Shown here: one piece after another, positions 27,953 to 51,427 of the stretch | How the letters are laid out: every line of letters begins with the position of its first letter | Numbering within the stretch: the stretch's first letter is position 1 | Program-made: the position numbers and the translations under genes | Notes under the pieces: model-generated | Databases searched by the model: none | What the model was told of the DNA's origin: nothing | The model's input: only the letters and a program-made list of their open reading frames with translations | DNA from: a virus | Strand: one strand, 5' to 3' | Length of the DNA: 64,000 nucleotides | IMG/VR virus record: IMGVR_UViG_3300006736_000004 | Span: 1 to 64,000 of that record

Positions 27953-28579
27953 ATGGCGATTACATTCCCCCGCACGATCCCGTCAGCGATGAAATTCCAG
28001 GCTGCTACTCCGAAGGTAAATTCCTCCGTTGCGGTAGCTAGGTCAATATTCACGGGCCAAGAGCAAGTCGTTGCCCATCAAGGCCAATGGTGGTCGGCTG
28101 ACCTTTCCGTTGCGCCGTTGGAGCGGGCCGACGCCGGGGCGATAACGGCTTGGCTTGTGTCATTGAACGGGCGGGAGAAAACACTTCTTTTTGGCGATCC
28201 GGCGGCGGCGACCCCTCAAGGAAGTGCCTCGTCGGCTCCGGGGACGCCGGTTGTCAATGGAGCCAGCCAAGCCGGGGCGGCCTTGATATGCGATGGCGCT
28301 CCGAATGATGCCGCCGGTTATCTTAAAGAAGGCGATTATGTCCAGCTTGGGTCCGGGGCAACGGCGCGGCTTTATATGGTGCTTGAAGATGTCACGGCGG
28401 ATGGAAGCGGGAACTTTACACTCAATATATGGCCCAACCTTAGAAGCTCCCCGGATAACGATGCGACGTTAGTCGTAAGTAGCGCGGTCGGGCGGTTCCG
28501 GCTGGCGGAGAATGTCCGACAATGGGATTTGCAGACGATCATTTATGGATTTTCATTCGGCATCGTTGAGGCATTCTAA
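27953..28579 (+). CDS. Distal tail protein
   Basis: Follows tape measure gene. SIFTGQEQ, WLVSLNG and IWPNLR motifs. Confidence 0.65.
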   Translation: MAITFPRTIPSAMKFQAATPKVNSSVAVARSIFTGQEQVVAHQGQWWSADLSVAPLERADAGAITAWLVSLNGREKTLLFGDPAAATPQGSASSAPGTPVVNGASQAGAALICDGAPNDAAGYLKEGDYVQLGSGATARLYMVLEDVTADGSGNFTLNIWPNLRSSPDNDATLVVSSAVGRFRLAENVRQWDLQTIIYGFSFGIVEAF

Positions 28580-29136
28580 TGGCCCGCATACTTGCATCCG
28601 CGATTGTGGACGAAGTTACGGCAGCATCTTTACGGCCTATCACCCTTGTAGATTTTGAGTTTGATGGCGGGTCAATTTTCTTCTGGAATGGCGTGGGCAA
28701 CACCACGATTGCTTCAACCGTTTATTCGGGCATTGGTAGCGTTCTCACCATAAGCCCAATCAAAGAAACAGAGGCCGTCAAATCAACCGGCGTGAATATC
28801 AGCTTGAACGGGATTCAATCCGATCTTTTGTCAAACGCTTTCGGTGAAGATTATCAAGATCGACCAGTGACAATTTGGCTTGGCTTCATGAATTCGGACA
28901 ATGTTTTCATTGATCGTGTCCAGCTTTTCAAGGGTCGGATGGACGTGGTGACGATTGTTGAGTCCGGGCCAACGGCGATGATCACGATTTCTGCGGAAAA
29001 CATCTTGGTCAGTTTGGAGCGCAGCCGAAACCGGAGGTTCACGGACCAAGACCAGCAAAAACAATTTCCCGGCGATCTTGGCTTTCAATATGTTGTGTCA
29101 CTCCAACAAAAAGAAGTGACGTGGGGATTTACTTGA
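28579..29136 (+). CDS. Minor tail protein (tail tip, L-like)
   Basis: LFKGRMD and RRFTDQDQQ.FPGDLGF.YV motifs. Confidence 0.7.
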   Translation: MARILASAIVDEVTAASLRPITLVDFEFDGGSIFFWNGVGNTTIASTVYSGIGSVLTISPIKETEAVKSTGVNISLNGIQSDLLSNAFGEDYQDRPVTIWLGFMNSDNVFIDRVQLFKGRMDVVTIVESGPTAMITISAENILVSLERSRNRRFTDQDQQKQFPGDLGFQYVVSLQQKEVTWGFT

Positions 29137-29169
29137 GAAAGACTAAAGACGAGGTTTGCGGATAGGATA

Positions 29170-32121
29170 ATGTCGGATTTTATTAAATATATAATGGATT
29201 ACATTACGGAATTACTTAGTCCGGCGTGTCGGATTGGCATTAAGGACTTCATTGACGATATTATCGAGACAATATCCGATGTAATTGAAGACGTAGCTGA
29301 TTTTTTTGTTGACACTTTCAACGAGGTGGTTGGGTTCTTTGCGCCGGAACCGCAAGAGCCAAATCTTACAAGCTTCGCCGCCGAATCACAGGGGCGTGTC
29401 CGCCAGTTCAAGCAACCTATCACCGCCCATAGATTTGTTTATGGGGAATTTCGGCTGTCCGGTCCGCTGACCTTCATTGACGTATCTTTAGACAACAACA
29501 AGATACATTTGATTATCACGCTTGCAGCGCACCCCGTACAAGCAATCGAAGACATTTATTTCGGGGACGAAGTCATCCCGTCAGACGCTATCGACGGGAC
29601 CACGGGCGTTGTTTCTTCGGGGCGGTTTGCAAACACGGCCCGGATTTTTAAATCGCTTGGCGACGAAGGCGCGGCACAACCATTTCCAGCATTGGTGAGC
29701 GCGACTACTGCATGGACGACCAATCATTTGCAGCAAGGACGTGCTAAGATTTACGTCAGCTTGGCATTCGATAAGGACGTTTATCCGCGAGGCGTTCCGG
29801 CGATTTCAGCGTGGGTCAAGGGGAAAAAGGTTGTCGATCCACGCAATTCCTCAACCGAGGCGTGGACGGTAAATCCCGTTTTGATTATCAGAGATTACAT
29901 GACGACTTCGACGGTTGATGGCGGCGGCGGGGCAACGACACTTGAGTTCGATGACACTTTTACAAATTCAGCGGCGAACACTTCCGAAGAAATTGTCAGC
30001 ACTCAACGGATAGATACCGTCATCACGGCTGTTGACACAGCAACCGATATTGCCACGCTAATTGGGTCAACCATTGAAATTTTCACCGGAGACCGGGTCC
30101 GGGTATCGGCAACCACTTCCACCATAGGCGGATTGTCGGCGGGGGTTGATTATTATGTCATCGCAACCCAAAGACTAGACACGGCACGAATCCAATTCGC
30201 CTCGACCTATGCTCTGGCGCTTGCCGGGACCGCTAAATCATTGACAACCTCTGGAGAAGGCCAACAATCCGTTTTCAAGACCGGGGAGCCTCGTTATACC
30301 ATGAACGGTTTTTTGCAGGTGGACCGGACGCCAGCCGCCATGATCGGGGATGCGCTTACGTCGATGGCGGGCCAAATGATTTATGCAAGCGGAACGTGGC
30401 GCATGAAAGCTGGCGTTTATACCGCGCCGACGATCACGCTTGATGAAAATGACTTCATTTCGGGGATAACCCTTCAAACGAGAATCGGGCGTAGATCAAG
30501 ATTTAATGCGGTCAAAGGTATCTACGTCACTAGCCTCAACCTTGACCAACCTGCTGATTATCCATCCGTTACTAATGCGACCTATGAAACCGAGGATAAC
30601 GGTGAGCGCACCTTCCGAGAGCTTGATTTGAAAAACACCAATAGACCGCAAACGGCGTCACGTCTTGCAAAGATTAGCTTGGAACGACATCGGCAAATGA
30701 TTTCGTTCAGAGCAACAACCACGCTCAAAGGATTGCAATTGCAAGCTGGCGATACGGTGTCGATTGACAATGCCCGCTTTGGGTGGTCGGCCAAAGTATT
30801 TGAGGTCGGAGAATGGCGGTTGATTCAAGTCGCCAATGAAGGAAACCCGACGCTTGGTTGTGAAATGTCTTTCCGTGAAACCGCCACTACGGTCTTTGAT
30901 TGGAACAGCGGGGAGGAAACCGTTGTTGATCCAGCGGCAAACTCTAGTTTGCCGGATATGTTCACCGTTCTCCCGCCGGAAGGTCTTGAGGTCAACGAAG
31001 AGCTTTATTCCACTCGAAATATCGGGGTCAAAGCGCGGGGAATTATCTCTTGGATGGCTCCCAATGATTTGAGCATTGTCGAATATGAAGTCCAACAACA
31101 ACAGACACAAGACAAGGACGGTAACGCCGTTACGGAGAGTTTTTCGGTTATCGCCAGGACGACGGAAGTGTTTTTGATCGTCTATGACATAGAGCCGGGG
31201 GTTTATAATATCCGGGTGAAGTCTTTGAGTTTGTTGGGGGTGTCGTCTGATTTTACAACCAAACCAAATCAAGAAATCTTTGGACTTTTGGCCCCGCCCA
31301 CGGAGCCGCAAAATCTTACAATTAGCGCGGTGAGTGGTTCTGCAATCCTTCGATGGGATGCCACCCCGGATTTGGATGTCAAGGTTGGCGGGACGTATAT
31401 TTTCCGACACGATAATGCTCTGACAGGAGCCTCATGGGGGACTTCGGTCGGGATCGGGACGGCAATCGCCGGATCGGAGACGACGGTTTCCTTGCCTCTT
31501 AAATCGGGGACGTATCTCGCCAAAGCCAAAGACAGTTCCAATGTTGAAAGCACGGATGCGGCATCTGTTTCCACGAAACAAGCCACGGCGGCGAATTTCA
31601 CGCTTGCGTCAACCATCACCGAAAGCACGAATTTTCCCGGCTCGACAACCAATGTTGTGGTTGGTGATGGAATGATAAAGCTAACGGCGTCTGGTTTGAT
31701 CGACAGCGTTGCCGACTTTTCCACGATAGCCGACATAGACGGGCTTGGCGGTCTTCACGATTCCGGAATTTATCTTTTCAACACGGCCTTCGATTGGACG
31801 ACGGTTCTTTCAAAGCGATACACCACAACCGTTGTTGCCGCAATCCTCAACGCCAACGATCTTATGGATTCCAAAACAGACTTGATTGACACTTGGACGA
31901 CATTCGACGGTGACGAAACAAGCGGTGCCGACGCGAGAGTGTATGTGAGAGAAACCGACGATGATCCTTCCGGGTCTCCGACATGGTCGTCTTGGAATTT
32001 ATTGGATAGTGCGGACCTCACGGCGAGAGCCGTTCAATTCCGGATGATTCTGACAACCACGGATTCGGCCTTCAATATCCAAGTTTCCGAATTGAGCGTG
32101 GCGGCGGATACCGCTGGTTAA
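29170..32121 (+). CDS. Tail tip / host-specificity protein (J-like) with FN3 domains
   Basis: RFVYGE..LSG, VKGKKV.DPR, NP.LIIRDY and FNAVKG motifs, plus FN3-like repeats. Confidence 0.8.
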   Translation: MSDFIKYIMDYITELLSPACRIGIKDFIDDIIETISDVIEDVADFFVDTFNEVVGFFAPEPQEPNLTSFAAESQGRVRQFKQPITAHRFVYGEFRLSGPLTFIDVSLDNNKIHLIITLAAHPVQAIEDIYFGDEVIPSDAIDGTTGVVSSGRFANTARIFKSLGDEGAAQPFPALVSATTAWTTNHLQQGRAKIYVSLAFDKDVYPRGVPAISAWVKGKKVVDPRNSSTEAWTVNPVLIIRDYMTTSTVDGGGGATTLEFDDTFTNSAANTSEEIVSTQRIDTVITAVDTATDIATLIGSTIEIFTGDRVRVSATTSTIGGLSAGVDYYVIATQRLDTARIQFASTYALALAGTAKSLTTSGEGQQSVFKTGEPRYTMNGFLQVDRTPAAMIGDALTSMAGQMIYASGTWRMKAGVYTAPTITLDENDFISGITLQTRIGRRSRFNAVKGIYVTSLNLDQPADYPSVTNATYETEDNGERTFRELDLKNTNRPQTASRLAKISLERHRQMISFRATTTLKGLQLQAGDTVSIDNARFGWSAKVFEVGEWRLIQVANEGNPTLGCEMSFRETATTVFDWNSGEETVVDPAANSSLPDMFTVLPPEGLEVNEELYSTRNIGVKARGIISWMAPNDLSIVEYEVQQQQTQDKDGNAVTESFSVIARTTEVFLIVYDIEPGVYNIRVKSLSLLGVSSDFTTKPNQEIFGLLAPPTEPQNLTISAVSGSAILRWDATPDLDVKVGGTYIFRHDNALTGASWGTSVGIGTAIAGSETTVSLPLKSGTYLAKAKDSSNVESTDAASVSTKQATAANFTLASTITESTNFPGSTTNVVVGDGMIKLTASGLIDSVADFSTIADIDGLGGLHDSGIYLFNTAFDWTTVLSKRYTTTVVAAILNANDLMDSKTDLIDTWTTFDGDETSGADARVYVRETDDDPSGSPTWSSWNLLDSADLTARAVQFRMILTTTDSAFNIQVSELSVAADTAG

Positions 32122-32152
32122 TTAACACAAGATGCAGTAAAAGGAACGGGCG

Positions 32153-32791
32153 ATGGCACAACATGATTACAATTTAGCGAATGCAAGCGGGGCGTCCTTC
32201 CGGTCGGACCTCAACAACGCTTTGGCGGCGGTTCTATCAAATAACTCGTCAACCGTTGCGCCGGGGGCTACCACACAAACGATGCAATGGGCGGACGTTT
32301 CTGCATTGGTCATGAACCTCCGCAATGCCGGGGACACCGCTTGGATCAAGGTTTTCAAATTCACGGCATCGACAATCATCCCATACATTCAATCTTCGGC
32401 GGGTGCTTCGGTGTTGGGGTCGGCCATCGTCCAGCGGACGGAGAATAATCTTTTTTCCAAATCTCAACGCGGAGCAATTGCGTCGGTATCCTATGCGTCG
32501 GCAATAGTTCTTTCATTTAATGACGCCAATAATTTCAAAATCAACACCCTTACGGGGAATTTAACTATTTCCAATCCGTCATCTATCGCCGCTTCACCGG
32601 GGCAAGGTGGGTCGATTTGGACAACGCAAGACGGCACGGGAAGCCGGACGGTTTCCTTTGGGTCTATGTTCAAATTCCCGGCGGGGACAGCGCCAACGGC
32701 CAGCACGGCAAGCGGGGCGACGGACCGCACGGATTACAAGGTCCGCGATGCTTCAACCATTGATGCGAACATGGCTTTGAATGTGAGCTAA
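32153..32791 (+). CDS. Tail fibre / minor structural protein
   Basis: MAQHDYNLANASGASFRSDLNNAL N-terminus and QDGTGSRT...PT.ST motif. Confidence 0.65.
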   Translation: MAQHDYNLANASGASFRSDLNNALAAVLSNNSSTVAPGATTQTMQWADVSALVMNLRNAGDTAWIKVFKFTASTIIPYIQSSAGASVLGSAIVQRTENNLFSKSQRGAIASVSYASAIVLSFNDANNFKINTLTGNLTISNPSSIAASPGQGGSIWTTQDGTGSRTVSFGSMFKFPAGTAPTASTASGATDRTDYKVRDASTIDANMALNVS

Positions 32792-32793
32792 TT

Positions 32794-33408
32794 ATGTGGC
32801 CCCCATATAAGCATTTTATTACTCTTGAAAGGCCGCGCCTAGTCGAGCATCCGAAGATGTCTTTGATGGGAGAAGACTCTTTAATGATGGGTGTTGCTGG
32901 CGCGGGCTGCGACACTACTTCCAGTTCCTCCGGGGAGTGGAACGGAGCAACTGGTTCTTTTACGTTTAGTGGGGATGGCGTTGACTGCAACGCAGGTGAT
33001 AAAGCCATTAGAACAAACGACACATTTACTGATGATTTCACGATTACTTACACACAAACTACCGGAATATATATGGTTATTGGCGTTTATGACATTGCCG
33101 AAGATGGAACATTTGTCTCGACTGGACAAGGCCACGGTGGCATGGGCTCCATGGTTAGAAGTTGGTATTGGGAATACAACGCCAACGGTCAAACGGTCTA
33201 TGGGGGAGAGAATCAAAGTGCGGAAACTATAGCTGATGGTTCGGTGATGAGGTTGGAGCGCAGATCAGGCGTGGTCAAGCTTTACGATGACGATGCTGAA
33301 ATCTATGAATGGTCGCAAACGTTTACCCCCGCTGTCGAGGTGCGGATTGTTACCGGCGCACATGCCAGCCACCCAGATCTTGACGGTGTGAGCTGGAAAC
33401 CTTGTTAA
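32794..33408 (+). CDS. Putative beta-sandwich tail-associated protein
   Basis: Beta-rich sequence after the fibre gene, lower GC. Confidence 0.45.
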   Translation: MWPPYKHFITLERPRLVEHPKMSLMGEDSLMMGVAGAGCDTTSSSSGEWNGATGSFTFSGDGVDCNAGDKAIRTNDTFTDDFTITYTQTTGIYMVIGVYDIAEDGTFVSTGQGHGGMGSMVRSWYWEYNANGQTVYGGENQSAETIADGSVMRLERRSGVVKLYDDDAEIYEWSQTFTPAVEVRIVTGAHASHPDLDGVSWKPC

Positions 33409-46384: not shown

Positions 46385-46658
46385 AGCCTTAGACCTTGAA
46401 CAAGTCGCCGTTGAGGTTACTGATAACGCATACCAATCAGCTAGGGATGAGTGGGAAGAAATTTCTGCTCGTTATGCTGAGTTGCGTGGCAACAGCAGTG
46501 GCAATCTTGGGGAGATCACAGGACTTATTAAAAAGTACGCTCCCACAACTGCCAAGTACCTTGGCGGCCCTGCTGCTGGTGCTGCCGTCGCCACTATGCT
46601 GGCTAACGATGGGGGTTTCTCTAAAGTCATCGGGACGGTGAGCAAAATCTTTGGCTAA
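46371..46658 (+). CDS. Hypothetical protein
   Basis: AAGGAG RBS, overlaps the lipase stop. Confidence 0.55.
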   Translation: MEPIEALDLEQVAVEVTDNAYQSARDEWEEISARYAELRGNSSGNLGEITGLIKKYAPTTAKYLGGPAAGAAVATMLANDGGFSKVIGTVSKIFG

Positions 46659-46839
46659 CGAAGGAGTCATGCGGACAATTAATGGCACTGTGCCAATGGC
46701 CTTCATTAGAGAGATGCAGAAGGTAAGGAGTCAACTGGCCGTGGTGGAAGCTGAACGCAATGCAGCCAAACGGGAAGTTGAGCGTTGGCGTAGGAAGAAT
46801 ATCGAACTGACTATGTTGTTGGATGCTGCTACGAAGTAG
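46651..46839 (+). CDS. Small coiled-coil protein
   Basis: Last plus-strand ORF before the array. Confidence 0.45.
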   Translation: MANEGVMRTINGTVPMAFIREMQKVRSQLAVVEAERNAAKREVERWRRKNIELTMLLDAATK

Positions 46840-46982
46840 CTCAATTTTTACGGTACTCTCTTCGAGTCTGGCTCACTCGATGCCTCCGGCACTCTCTCGT
46901 TGAACGGTTCGCTCAAGGCCTGCGGTTCTCTCGTTGACAATGGCTCACTCGTCGTAGACGGTTTTCTCAATTGCGATGGTTA
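46840..46982 (-). ncRNA. TIGR-like tandem interspaced guide RNA array (four 36-nt units)
   Basis: Seven 10-nt repeats at an exact 18-nt period (46851, 46869, 46887, 46905, 46923, 46941, 46959), alternating GAGARWRCCG and GAGYGARCCR on the minus strand, with eight unique 8-nt spacers and partial repeats at both ends. Confidence 0.8.
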
Positions 46983-47798
46983 TATAGGCACCTCGATCTT
47001 ATGTGCATGATTAAGATGAGCAATCGGATATGGCAACGGTGGCGACTTACCATAATGTAATTTGTAAGCAACCTCATGGTAATGTGCTAGGAAAAGTTTA
47101 ACTGCATATCTTTCAGCGCGTAATTCAATCCTACCATCAGGCAATCGGCCCTTGATATAAGCCTTGTACGCTTCAGTTGTTTTGCTGAACTTCTTTTCCT
47201 TGAGAGTTCTCTCAGCGGTATCTGCAAAGTCTCCAGCAAGATTCTTGCTTACCTCTTGGGCTTTCCGTTCAGCATAGATATGACCATAGAAGCAATTTTC
47301 GTTATTGTGGAATTTCATAAAGCTCTGTCCAATATTCCAACACAGAGTTTTAAGTCGGGCGTTCCAAGGGCGTTTTTGCCCTTTTTCCCATTTAGCTGTT
47401 GGGTCCAGACCAGCGAATGACCAGATATTGCCAACTGTCGGTGCTTTGGTAATGTCAATGTGAGCAAGAAGGCCAGCAGCAATGACTTCACCGACACCAA
47501 TCTGTGATCTGGCCCACTGTCCCAATGGATCTGCGTTGGAATAATAATTGAGTGCCGCTTTAATCTGGTTCTCCATAGTTCGTGCTTGGTCAGCTAACCA
47601 GTGAAGAACAATGCAGGGTTCTTCCGTTTCACTCATTGACCCAATCTGGTTATTACACCGGATGCGGTTGTCTTGCATCATATAATAGGCATCGACTAGA
47701 AATCTAACCTCTGTAGTGGTCATCTCACCACCACCAGATGCTTTCCGAAGATCACGACTTAATCGTTGAACAGGCTCTAACTGAGTCATTATATCCAT
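46980..47798 (-). CDS. Nop-domain/IS110-related RNA-binding protein without a nuclease domain (TasA-like)
   Basis: LVDAYY.MQD.RIR..NQI, GVGEVIAAGLL..ID, WSFAGL, WNARLKTLCW and RAERYAVKLFL.H motifs. No RuvC/DEDD, HNH or SG catalytic loop. The array begins at its stop codon. Confidence 0.8.
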   Translation of the reverse strand: MDIMTQLEPVQRLSRDLRKASGGGEMTTTEVRFLVDAYYMMQDNRIRCNNQIGSMSETEEPCIVLHWLADQARTMENQIKAALNYYSNADPLGQWARSQIGVGEVIAAGLLAHIDITKAPTVGNIWSFAGLDPTAKWEKGQKRPWNARLKTLCWNIGQSFMKFHNNENCFYGHIYAERKAQEVSKNLAGDFADTAERTLKEKKFSKTTEAYKAYIKGRLPDGRIELRAERYAVKLFLAHYHEVAYKLHYGKSPPLPYPIAHLNHAHKIEVPI

Positions 47799-48562: not shown

Positions 48563-49021
48563 TTATAGATTATCCTTGTATTCGTAGTCTGTCCATAGCG
48601 CATTCCACTTCGATGGATCAGCGGCTATCTCATTGGCTGATTCGTGATTAAGAAATATCTTAACCTGTTCTCGTAACGGATGGAGTGGATTTAGCTCAAT
48701 ATGATGCCCTTTTCTGAACCACTCACCAAAATCCCCCTTTTCATCAGCCACTACGGCTTCAAACTGTCTTTTAGCTCTCTGTCCGGGCGTAGGTTCTGAC
48801 CCTTTTGCGTACCCATTCTCAAAGATGGGGTCTTCATTGAACTCAGCTTGGTCTGCTATGGCTAACGCTACAAGGAACCGTGTTCCCGGCTTGGCATTAA
48901 GGACTTCATTCGGCATATCATCGAATTGGATTTTCATAGTGAACTTCCAATCGCCTGACTGTATCTGGCTTAGAGAGTCCTTCTTAGCCTCAAAGCCGGG
49001 GATTATATCACCTTGTTTCAT
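48563..49021 (-). CDS. Hypothetical phage protein
   Basis: FEAKK..L.Q and PGTRF.VAL motifs, in operon. Confidence 0.6.
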   Translation of the reverse strand: MKQGDIIPGFEAKKDSLSQIQSGDWKFTMKIQFDDMPNEVLNAKPGTRFLVALAIADQAEFNEDPIFENGYAKGSEPTPGQRAKRQFEAVVADEKGDFGEWFRKGHHIELNPLHPLREQVKIFLNHESANEIAADPSKWNALWTDYEYKDNL

Positions 49022-49146: not shown

Positions 49147-49500
49147 TCAAGCCAAGGTGATACCATTAGCCTTATCCCGTATTTTCTTGTCAGGACTTCT
49201 CTCAGCAAGAGTCTGGGCAACCTTAAATGGATCAAACGTCATCTTCCAGAACTCCCTCTCTCCAATGTTATGCTGTAGCGTATGGCACTTAGAACACAGT
49301 GGGACGATTTTGGTATCACAAGGCTTTCTGCCCATCCCGGCTTGCTGGTTCATTCTGATGTGAGCAGCTTGGCTCACTGTCCTGCCAGCATGAACTAGGT
49401 TAAGTCGCATACACACGATACACCAATGCTCACTGACAAACTTCTGATGTTTGGTTGACTTGATGAACTTTTGTTTTTGCACTCCACTCTCCCGGCTCAA
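49147..49500 (-). CDS. DUF968/HNH-like Zn-binding nuclease
   Basis: CIVC, AAHIR, GMGRKP.D and PLCSKCH..QH motifs. Confidence 0.75.
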   Translation of the reverse strand: MSRESGVQKQKFIKSTKHQKFVSEHWCIVCMRLNLVHAGRTVSQAAHIRMNQQAGMGRKPCDTKIVPLCSKCHTLQHNIGEREFWKMTFDPFKVAQTLAERSPDKKIRDKANGITLA

Positions 49501-50764: not shown

Positions 50765-51427
50765 CTATGCGGCTCTCTTCTTGAGAACCTTATCCAAATC
50801 ATACAATTTCCTCATTAGCTTAAACGCTTCCCATGCGTCATCAAGTTCTGAAAAGTGGTGATGATGAAAGTCTGCATGGTCTTTAGAGAATCTACACAAG
50901 TGAAACCCGCCTGTCAATTGAGCATCTGGGTTATGAAAATTCCACAAATGTGCGTAACACGATAATTGAATCAGTGAATCCGAATAAAGTTTATTCCCGG
51001 TTTTCCAATCCAACAAACAAAACTCGCCGTTAACGTAACCAACCGCATCAGGGGTACCACCAAATCTGAACTCATTAGAGACTAGGTGCATCTCTGTATC
51101 CACGATCTCCAATTTAGACATAGAGGCCCATTTTTCGTAAGCCTCGTAGGCTTGTACTGCTAATGGGTACTCAACGTCACCCCAATCCTCGTCGCGCTTT
51201 GTGGGGTCTTTTTCGCCTCTGATAGAGCGTTCTACCATCTCATGTGCCATTGTACCCGACCCACCAGCGGAATCTCTAACGTCACGGTAATCCTTACCTT
51301 CGATTCCTATGTTCCAAGCCCAATGGATAAGACCACCACTCTCTTTAAACCTACCAATCACTGTGGTAGTGCCGGGAACGCGAACTTTCTTACCGTCTAC
51401 TTGGATGTAGTAAGGTGCTGTTGGCAT
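50765..51427 (-). CDS. PD-(D/E)XK exonuclease
   Basis: P..TTVI, GT.AH, GGTPD, LDWKT and QLSCY motifs. Confidence 0.8.
   Translation of the reverse strand: MPTAPYYIQVDGKKVRVPGTTTVIGRFKESGGLIHWAWNIGIEGKDYRDVRDSAGGSGTMAHEMVERSIRGEKDPTKRDEDWGDVEYPLAVQAYEAYEKWASMSKLEIVDTEMHLVSNEFRFGGTPDAVGYVNGEFCLLDWKTGNKLYSDSLIQLSCYAHLWNFHNPDAQLTGGFHLCRFSKDHADFHHHHFSELDDAWEAFKLMRKLYDLDKVLKKRAA

Follow-up and report, generated by a model that had tools for sequence, protein, structure and literature searches.

The minus strand of the viral record IMGVR_UViG_3300006736_000004 carries a gene for a 272-aa nuclease-free Tas protein, tasA (46980-47798), with a 144-nt TIGR array (46839-46982) lying downstream of the gene and overlapping its end, and we consider it highly probable that the two constitute a phage-encoded dual-repeat TIGR-TasA system. 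The window analysed here covers the opening 64 kb of a viral contig of 79 kb (79,107 bp) from an uncultured marine phage, and all positions refer to the window. The TIGR-TasA kind is already known, having been published since 2025, and this locus is a genuine further example of it. A preliminary description, made from the letters of the window, had proposed a TIGR-TasA-like dual-repeat array beside a Nop-family protein; the minus-strand array reads exactly as written there, the 272-aa open reading frame (ORF) is as described, and the array obeys the published grammar, its units being 36 nt and its spacers 8 nt long, like those of SpTIGR.

The array keeps a strict period of 18 nt, in which two 10-nt repeats alternate, an edge repeat GAGYGARCCR and a loop repeat GAGARWRCCG. 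The eight spacers, each 8 nt long, are all different, giving four 36-nt units; the period, the two repeat classes and the differing spacers had all been claimed in the preliminary description and are borne out. Every full repeat, edge and loop alike, has GAG at its 5' end (box D) and CCR at its 3' end (box C). The GAGYG...CCR class is taken as the edge repeat because the truncated repeats at both ends of the array belong to it. The stop codon TAA of tasA (46982-46980) sits within TAACCA, a 5'-truncated edge repeat that opens the array, and a 3'-truncated edge repeat GAGC (46842-46839) closes it, the final base of the latter being also the final base of the stop codon of a convergent plus-strand ORF (46651-46839). 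Thus, the array fills the entire gap between two converging genes. Taking the edge repeat first, then spacer A, the loop repeat and finally spacer B, unit 1 reads TAACCA / TCGCAATT / GAGAAAACCG / TCTACGAC, unit 2 GAGTGAGCCA / TTGTCAAC / GAGAGAACCG / CAGGCCTT, unit 3 GAGCGAACCG / TTCAACGA / GAGAGTGCCG / GAGGCATC, and unit 4 GAGTGAGCCA / GACTCGAA / GAGAGTACCG / TAAAAATT, followed by GAGC.

The periodicity of the array stands out from the rest of the genome. Within a 108-nt window, 56 of 108 positions match at lag 18 and 63 of 108 at lag 36, compared with a genome-wide mean of 29 (standard deviation 5), which places the array about 5.3 and 6.7 standard deviations above the mean, respectively; both values are the maxima of the 64-kb window and of the whole 79,107-bp contig. 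The full-unit motif CCR-N8-RAG-N4-CCR-N8-RAG occurs at seven overlapping positions at the array and nowhere else in the contig (0.15 in shuffles). Neither the periodicity scan nor the full-unit motif scan revealed further or dispersed units in the 79-kb contig. Tandem Repeats Finder reported nothing at the array, as is expected because eight of every 18 positions vary. The array transcript is predicted to be without significant secondary structure (fold z +0.30), which fits the dual-repeat type and not the stem-loop type.

The identity of the protein was established from its ORF and by means of phmmer, AlphaFold2 and Foldseek. Against PDB sequences phmmer matches SpTasH of Salicola phage CGphi29 (1.2e-11) and TaTasR (9mty_A, 2e-11), IS621 being merely marginal (E 0.08). 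An AlphaFold2 model built on 34 relatives (mean pLDDT 90, pTM 0.87) predicts an all-helical protein with a long helical hairpin at residues 28-88, plus a C-terminal beta-hairpin; the layout comprises a low-confidence stretch (residues 1-27), a coiled-coil hairpin (about 28-88) and a Nop domain (about 91-272) with a C-terminal processing loop. The ten best Foldseek matches of this model in the PDB are TasH/TasR cryo-electron microscopy chains (probability 1.0, TMq 0.55-0.67), followed by the far weaker IS621 (TMq 0.40) and ISCro4, so the model agrees with the Nop-like fold that had been expected. Among Pfam matches at E <= 0.01 we found a single sub-threshold one, to Transposase_20 (19 bits vs a cutoff of 21.3, residues 100-136), and no HNH, RuvC/DEDD, serine-recombinase or DEDD_Tnp_IS110 domain; together with the Tas matches by phmmer and Foldseek, this upholds the earlier claim of a Nop-family protein without a nuclease. 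Rfam gave no match. The protein, at 272 aa, is shorter than SpTasH (309 aa) and TaTasR (331 aa), and under the nomenclature of Faure et al. it counts as a TasA because just some 27 poorly ordered residues replace the HNH domain of SpTasH.

Residues with tested functions in SpTasH are retained. In a pairwise alignment with SpTasH, as read from the phage record, W154 and K162 align to W203 and K211, the aromatic-basic pair located at the DNA-unwinding junction, and the C-terminal PYPIAHLNH aligns to LYVQEKLGH, placing Y257 and H264 on the pre-tigRNA processing residues Y289 and H296 with the same Y-x6-H spacing; both SpTasH pairs have been functionally tested. Among the 34 relatives W154, K162 and H264 are invariant, and residue 257 is Y in 29 and F in five. 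Hence Y257/H264 appears, from the alignment, to be a conserved putative guide-processing pair. Xu et al. reported the Y/H loop as a hallmark of dual-repeat Tas proteins that the stem-loop ones lack; its retention here agrees with the type of the array and with the absence of significant predicted structure in the array transcript.

The association of the protein with arrays, on which the preliminary description had let its proposal depend, extends to the relatives. A large protein collection contains more than 4,000 relatives whose length is similar, the closest being 62% identical. In a viral comparison set of 80 IMG/VR loci (TasA at 46-60% identity), 36-nt-periodic arrays lie at most 400 bp from the gene in 69 (60 downstream, 18 upstream) and farther from it in three more. 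The consensus units of the relatives fit a 10+8+10+8 layout, with the edge repeat GAGCGAGCCA, variants GATCGAGACA and GAACGAGTCA, and the loop repeat GAGAGWACCA. Positions 3 and 8 of the edge repeat vary together, the combinations being G-C, T-A or A-T, which matches the extra base pair between these positions described in the TasR structure paper. A simple parser delimited 188 repeat chains in the relatives, 187 of them on the gene strand.

A different identity is suggested by the annotation of the family. In PHROGs the protein falls into phrog_4285 (1.9e-49), which bears the label 'transposase' (integration and excision), and an NCBI record of Halomonas sp. NO4 (P0005) also names a TasA relative 'transposase'. 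Taken with a period divisible by three and a 40-aa ORF (46848-46970) readable through the array with a repeated S-E-P, these labels could point to an IS110-type transposase remnant next to a coding peptide repeat or a protein-binding iteron array, and to no guide system at all. We find this hardly credible. The protein is without DEDD/RuvC and the Tas proteins match it far better than IS621; the array varies within uninterrupted 8-nt blocks alone, which alternate with invariant 10-nt blocks, and not at codon third positions; and the near-identical repeats of SpTIGR are experimentally processed into tigRNAs. An open frame is, moreover, poorly discriminating, 37 of 100 arrays being open in some frame. 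The label 'transposase' is misleading for a family of nuclease-free guide-RNA-binding proteins.

What the locus itself offers is the array, a protein placed in its family by sequence and fold, conserved junction and processing residues, and relatives that carry arrays; for processing, stoichiometry, target geometry and repression we lean on published work on relatives, by analogy with which we propose the following mechanism. The gene tasA and the array would be transcribed leftward as the final elements of an early-gene operon. TasA would bind the repeats through box C (CCR, 3' end) and box D (GAG, 5' end) and, using the Tyr257/His264 loop near its C terminus, cleave the precursor midway through each edge repeat (GAGYG|ARCCR), releasing up to four 36-nt tigRNAs. 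The resulting complex may then bind double-stranded DNA in which one strand reads as spacer A and then as spacer B in reverse complement, 16 bp in all, and unwind it, with one spacer pairing with each strand. Binding rather than cleavage is proposed because TasA is without a nuclease domain, and the outcome would be a steric block of transcription or replication. The role of programmable DNA binder or repressor inferred in the preliminary description corresponds, by analogy, to what has been reported for MbTasA (Xu et al. 2026).

The ends of the tigRNAs were predicted by analogy with the cut UGCG|AGCCA in the edge repeat of TaTasR tigRNA1 and the 36-nt rule. Placed in this way, the predicted tigRNAs run from ARCCR to GAGYG and measure exactly 36 nt in all four units. 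On the minus strand, tigRNA 1 (46946-46981) would comprise AACCA, the spacers and loop of unit 1, and GAGTG; tigRNA 2 (46910-46945) AGCCA, the spacers and loop of unit 2, and GAGCG, being flanked by complete edge repeats on both sides; tigRNA 3 (46874-46909) AACCG, the spacers and loop of unit 3, and GAGTG; and tigRNA 4 (46838-46873) AGCCA, the spacers and loop of unit 4, and GAGC(T). Directly after the array lies a short hairpin, GCTAC-TTC-GTAGC (46827-46840, both strands), common to the end of the convergent plus-strand operon; the fold z is only -0.9 for the minus and -1.4 for the plus strand, which makes it a weak one. On the plus strand it forms part of a terminator-like site (46825-46840, then TCAATTTTTA), and the T-tract of this site, read in reverse complement, gives spacer B of unit 4. 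Spacer B of unit 4 may thus be held by termination of the rightward operon rather than by a target.

The target geometry was taken from a synthetic TaTasR tigRNA1 and its single-stranded DNA target (Science supplement), in which one strand carries spacer A and then the reverse-complemented spacer B. The predicted 16-bp sites of guides 2 and 3 are accordingly TTGTCAACAAGGCCTG and TTCAACGAGATGCCTC. In a genome of 3-5 Mb, chance would yield a perfect site for the four guides combined only about 0.01 times. Scanning IMG/VR for exact 16-mers gave 14, 11, 5 and 54 loci for guides 1 to 4. Decoys with an impossible geometry gave 19, 10 and 3 loci for guides 1 to 3, and the counts are considered to be at chance level because the decoys give similar numbers; the 54 matches of the AT-rich guide 4 belong mostly to one family of related contigs. 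In bacterial genomes guide 2 gave more than 120 matches over all phyla, which were rejected as chance.

Six matched loci of guides 1-3, in three independent clusters, share protein homology with the phage, compared with 0 of 32 for the decoys. One of the homology links is a promiscuous endonuclease VII gene, and another is a distant portal-region gene, the guide match itself lying in an unrelated small ORF. Guide 1 has an exact 16-bp site inside a PAPS-reductase-like gene (L083 482-497, L090 269-284) that is 40% identical to the phage ORF 178-1326, and the phage's own copy differs at that site; no other of these matches falls within a homologous gene. No matched contig sharing homology carries the target of a second guide. 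The PAPS-reductase match is a single anecdote, compatible with chance, and we found no convincing target in the phage, IMG/VR or bacterial genomes. A lack of identified targets is usual for the TIGR-Tas family, according to published work.

Near-matches were also seen at the tasA genes of other phage lineages. Guide 1 matches at 14 of 16 positions in L047 (2969-2984), in codons 2-7 of tasA, and guide 4 at 15 of 16 in L022 (2358-2373), 57 nt upstream of tasA. Among the 80 TasA loci, two of three near-matches of the window guides fall at tasA starts vs two of 21 for 60 decoys. As a general rule, guides aimed at the tasA 5' ends of rivals were rejected: in a family-wide test of 748 unique guides there were no exact and nine one-mismatch matches vs 5-12 for four decoy geometries, giving no excess, and no others lay near a tasA start. 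A further idea is that this minimal fixed set of four guides is a dedicated regulatory device against a few sites of marine hosts or rival phages, and not an open-ended repertoire. We think this quite unlikely; if it were true, the array would be under diversifying change, in keeping with the two of four population polymorphisms within 2 kb that fall in it, one of them in a spacer, and the near-matches of guides 1 and 4 where the tasA genes of other lineages begin would be real, with rival TIGR systems silencing each other.

Several observations weigh against a functional guide system at this locus. The array has four units vs a rough median of 17.6 in the relatives. The repeats show some degeneracy, loop 1 being GAGAAAACCG, and box C is CCG in five of the eight repeats vs the usual CCA of the family. 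The outer edge repeats of units 1 and 4 are present in truncated form only, and minimised arrays with TasR and TasH have been reported to require full edge repeats for processing. A polymorphism at 46912 changes an edge repeat from GAGCG to GAACG, which would disrupt its G-C closing pair. On the array strand, no U-tract accompanies the hairpin that follows the array. No self-target with up to two mismatches and gaps of 0-3 was found in the 79-kb contig, in line with the preliminary description, in which none had been seen by eye in the window; three-mismatch self sites number three vs 2.0 in shuffles. Finally, no RNA run is present among the sequencing runs listed as holding the stretch.

These features raise the question of whether the array is decaying, with four units eroding and non-functional guides, and whether TasA is inert or independent of guides. 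The small number of units with no others in the contig, the deviation of several repeats from the family consensus and the missing targets would all agree with such a state. So would the variation between populations. Many marine metagenomes, drawn from at least eight studies, contain half or more of the words sampled from the stretch, and across three of these there are four single-nucleotide polymorphisms in 2 kb, two of them in the 144-nt array and none in the 819-nt tasA. One of the two is the change in the edge repeat already given, and the other, 46901 T>A (runs X2, X3 and X4), turns spacer A of unit 3 from TTCAACGA into TTCTACGA. In a fourth run (X5) the contigs break between 46749 and 46901. 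Against decay, the tasA frame is intact with all examined functional residues kept, and GAG...CCR is retained in every repeat at strict 18-nt spacing. The CCG box C is the consensus in the long arrays of the relatives L016 and L031, and the absence of targets is the norm in this family. Without indels, the four-unit array turns up again in three other marine metagenomes that belong to different studies, the sampling running from 2017 to 2019. In view of the intact frame, functional residues and spacing, and of the stability of the array from sample to sample, we regard a decaying array as unlikely, and prefer the reading of a dual-repeat TIGR-TasA system.

The genomic setting bears on whether such a system could cut DNA through a partner. 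The gene tasA closes a block of early genes that runs leftward and contains a PD-(D/E)XK exonuclease (50765-51427), and the rightward block facing it encodes an M15 peptidase and a class-3 lipase. Its minus-strand neighbours are a 152-aa ORF of unknown family (48563-49021) and a 117-aa DUF968/YbcO-like ORF (49147-49500). A separate nuclease working with TasA might be sought in the latter, which lies 1.3 kb upstream on the same strand (Pfam match sub-threshold, 5e-5) and has homologues near tasA in 10 of the 80 relatives. It is absent from the other 70 loci, though, its varying position relative to tasA and the array makes it look like shared phage backbone, and no clear association of TasA with other proteins emerged from the published survey. 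A cutting system of this sort therefore seems very improbable to us, and a TasA that binds without cutting is the reading we retain. Both neighbours recur near tasA in 10 of the 80 relatives each (L034, L038, L039, L041, L042, L046, L049, L054-L056, L058), where the cassette of tasA and array lies between the two; here it comes after both. This difference in position suggests that the cassette moves within a shared early-gene backbone.

The phage has no close cultured relative, its portal-region protein and helicase showing at most 43% identity. The G+C content drops from about 55% to about 46-50% at 28000-33000 and does not rise again before the window ends, tasA lying in the low-GC part; the portal-region gene of this part resembles those of podoviruses of roughly 36-40 kb. 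At the start of the contig (178-2842), PAPS-reductase-like (phrog_2302), glucosyltransferase-like and ParB-like genes stand side by side. ParB homologues are sometimes operonic with tasA in other loci; here the ParB-like gene is 44 kb away from it.

TIGR-Tas systems are compact RNA-guided DNA binders, free of a protospacer-adjacent motif and of current interest for genome engineering. The present locus leaves their known mechanism unchanged. It is a clean and very small example, with a 272-aa protein, four guides in 144 nt and no spare intergenic DNA, and it illustrates the labelling of TasA proteins as 'transposase' in PHROGs and NCBI. The phage that carries it is abundant in the sea, being seen in many metagenomes, and a fixed set of four guides in a recurring phage could be, given a host, a convenient natural case for studying the roles of TasA guides.

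With 20,096 tas loci catalogued in the literature, the locus can be compared with several known systems. The IS110/IS621 bridge-RNA recombinases and the archaeal Nop5 box C/D proteins have in common with it a Nop-type RNA-binding domain and a two-part guide pairing with two strands or segments. Unlike IS110/IS621, the protein has no DEDD/RuvC or serine catalytic domain and there is no single structured bridge RNA; from IS621 it is further set apart by the marginal sequence match and weaker fold match given above. The type dual-repeat TIGR-TasA is FpTIGR of Flavonifractor plautii (Faure et al. 2025, PMC12045711), whose FpTasA binds 36-nt RNAs. According to its published description it resembles our locus in being phage-borne, in its solo coiled-coil and Nop protein without a nuclease, and in an array placed directly downstream, with alternating edge and loop repeats, 36-nt units and truncated edge repeats at both ends. 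Its reported spacers are 9 nt whereas those described here are 8 nt (a guide of 16 nt per unit), and our locus differs also in having just four units.

At the level of the repeats, the edge of TaTasR inferred from the ends of its tigRNA1 (UGCG...AGCCA) is UGCGAGCCA, and GCGAGCCA is common to it and to the edge repeat found here. The best match in both sequence and fold is SpTIGR-TasH of Salicola phage CGphi29 (PDB 9w03, 9w04, 21kl; PMC13421893). Its protein is 29% identical over the Nop domain and shares the W/K unwinding pair and the Y/H processing pair. In the phage record the SpTIGR edge repeat is AAGCGAGCCA and the loop repeat AAGACAACCA, separated by 8-nt spacers; these lengths equal ours, and the edge is one or two letters from that of our array. 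SpTasH differs by an N-terminal HNH domain with which it cuts both strands, whereas the protein described here, judging from its domain content, should bind without cutting. In this respect it resembles nuclease-deficient Tas effectors, two of which, MbTasA and the catalytically dead CsTasR, repress transcription in a guide-dependent and reversible manner (Xu et al. 2026, bioRxiv 10.64898/2026.09.09.750476). Our locus is dual-repeat with the Y/H loop kept; the mechanism that we propose for it is the one reported for these effectors.

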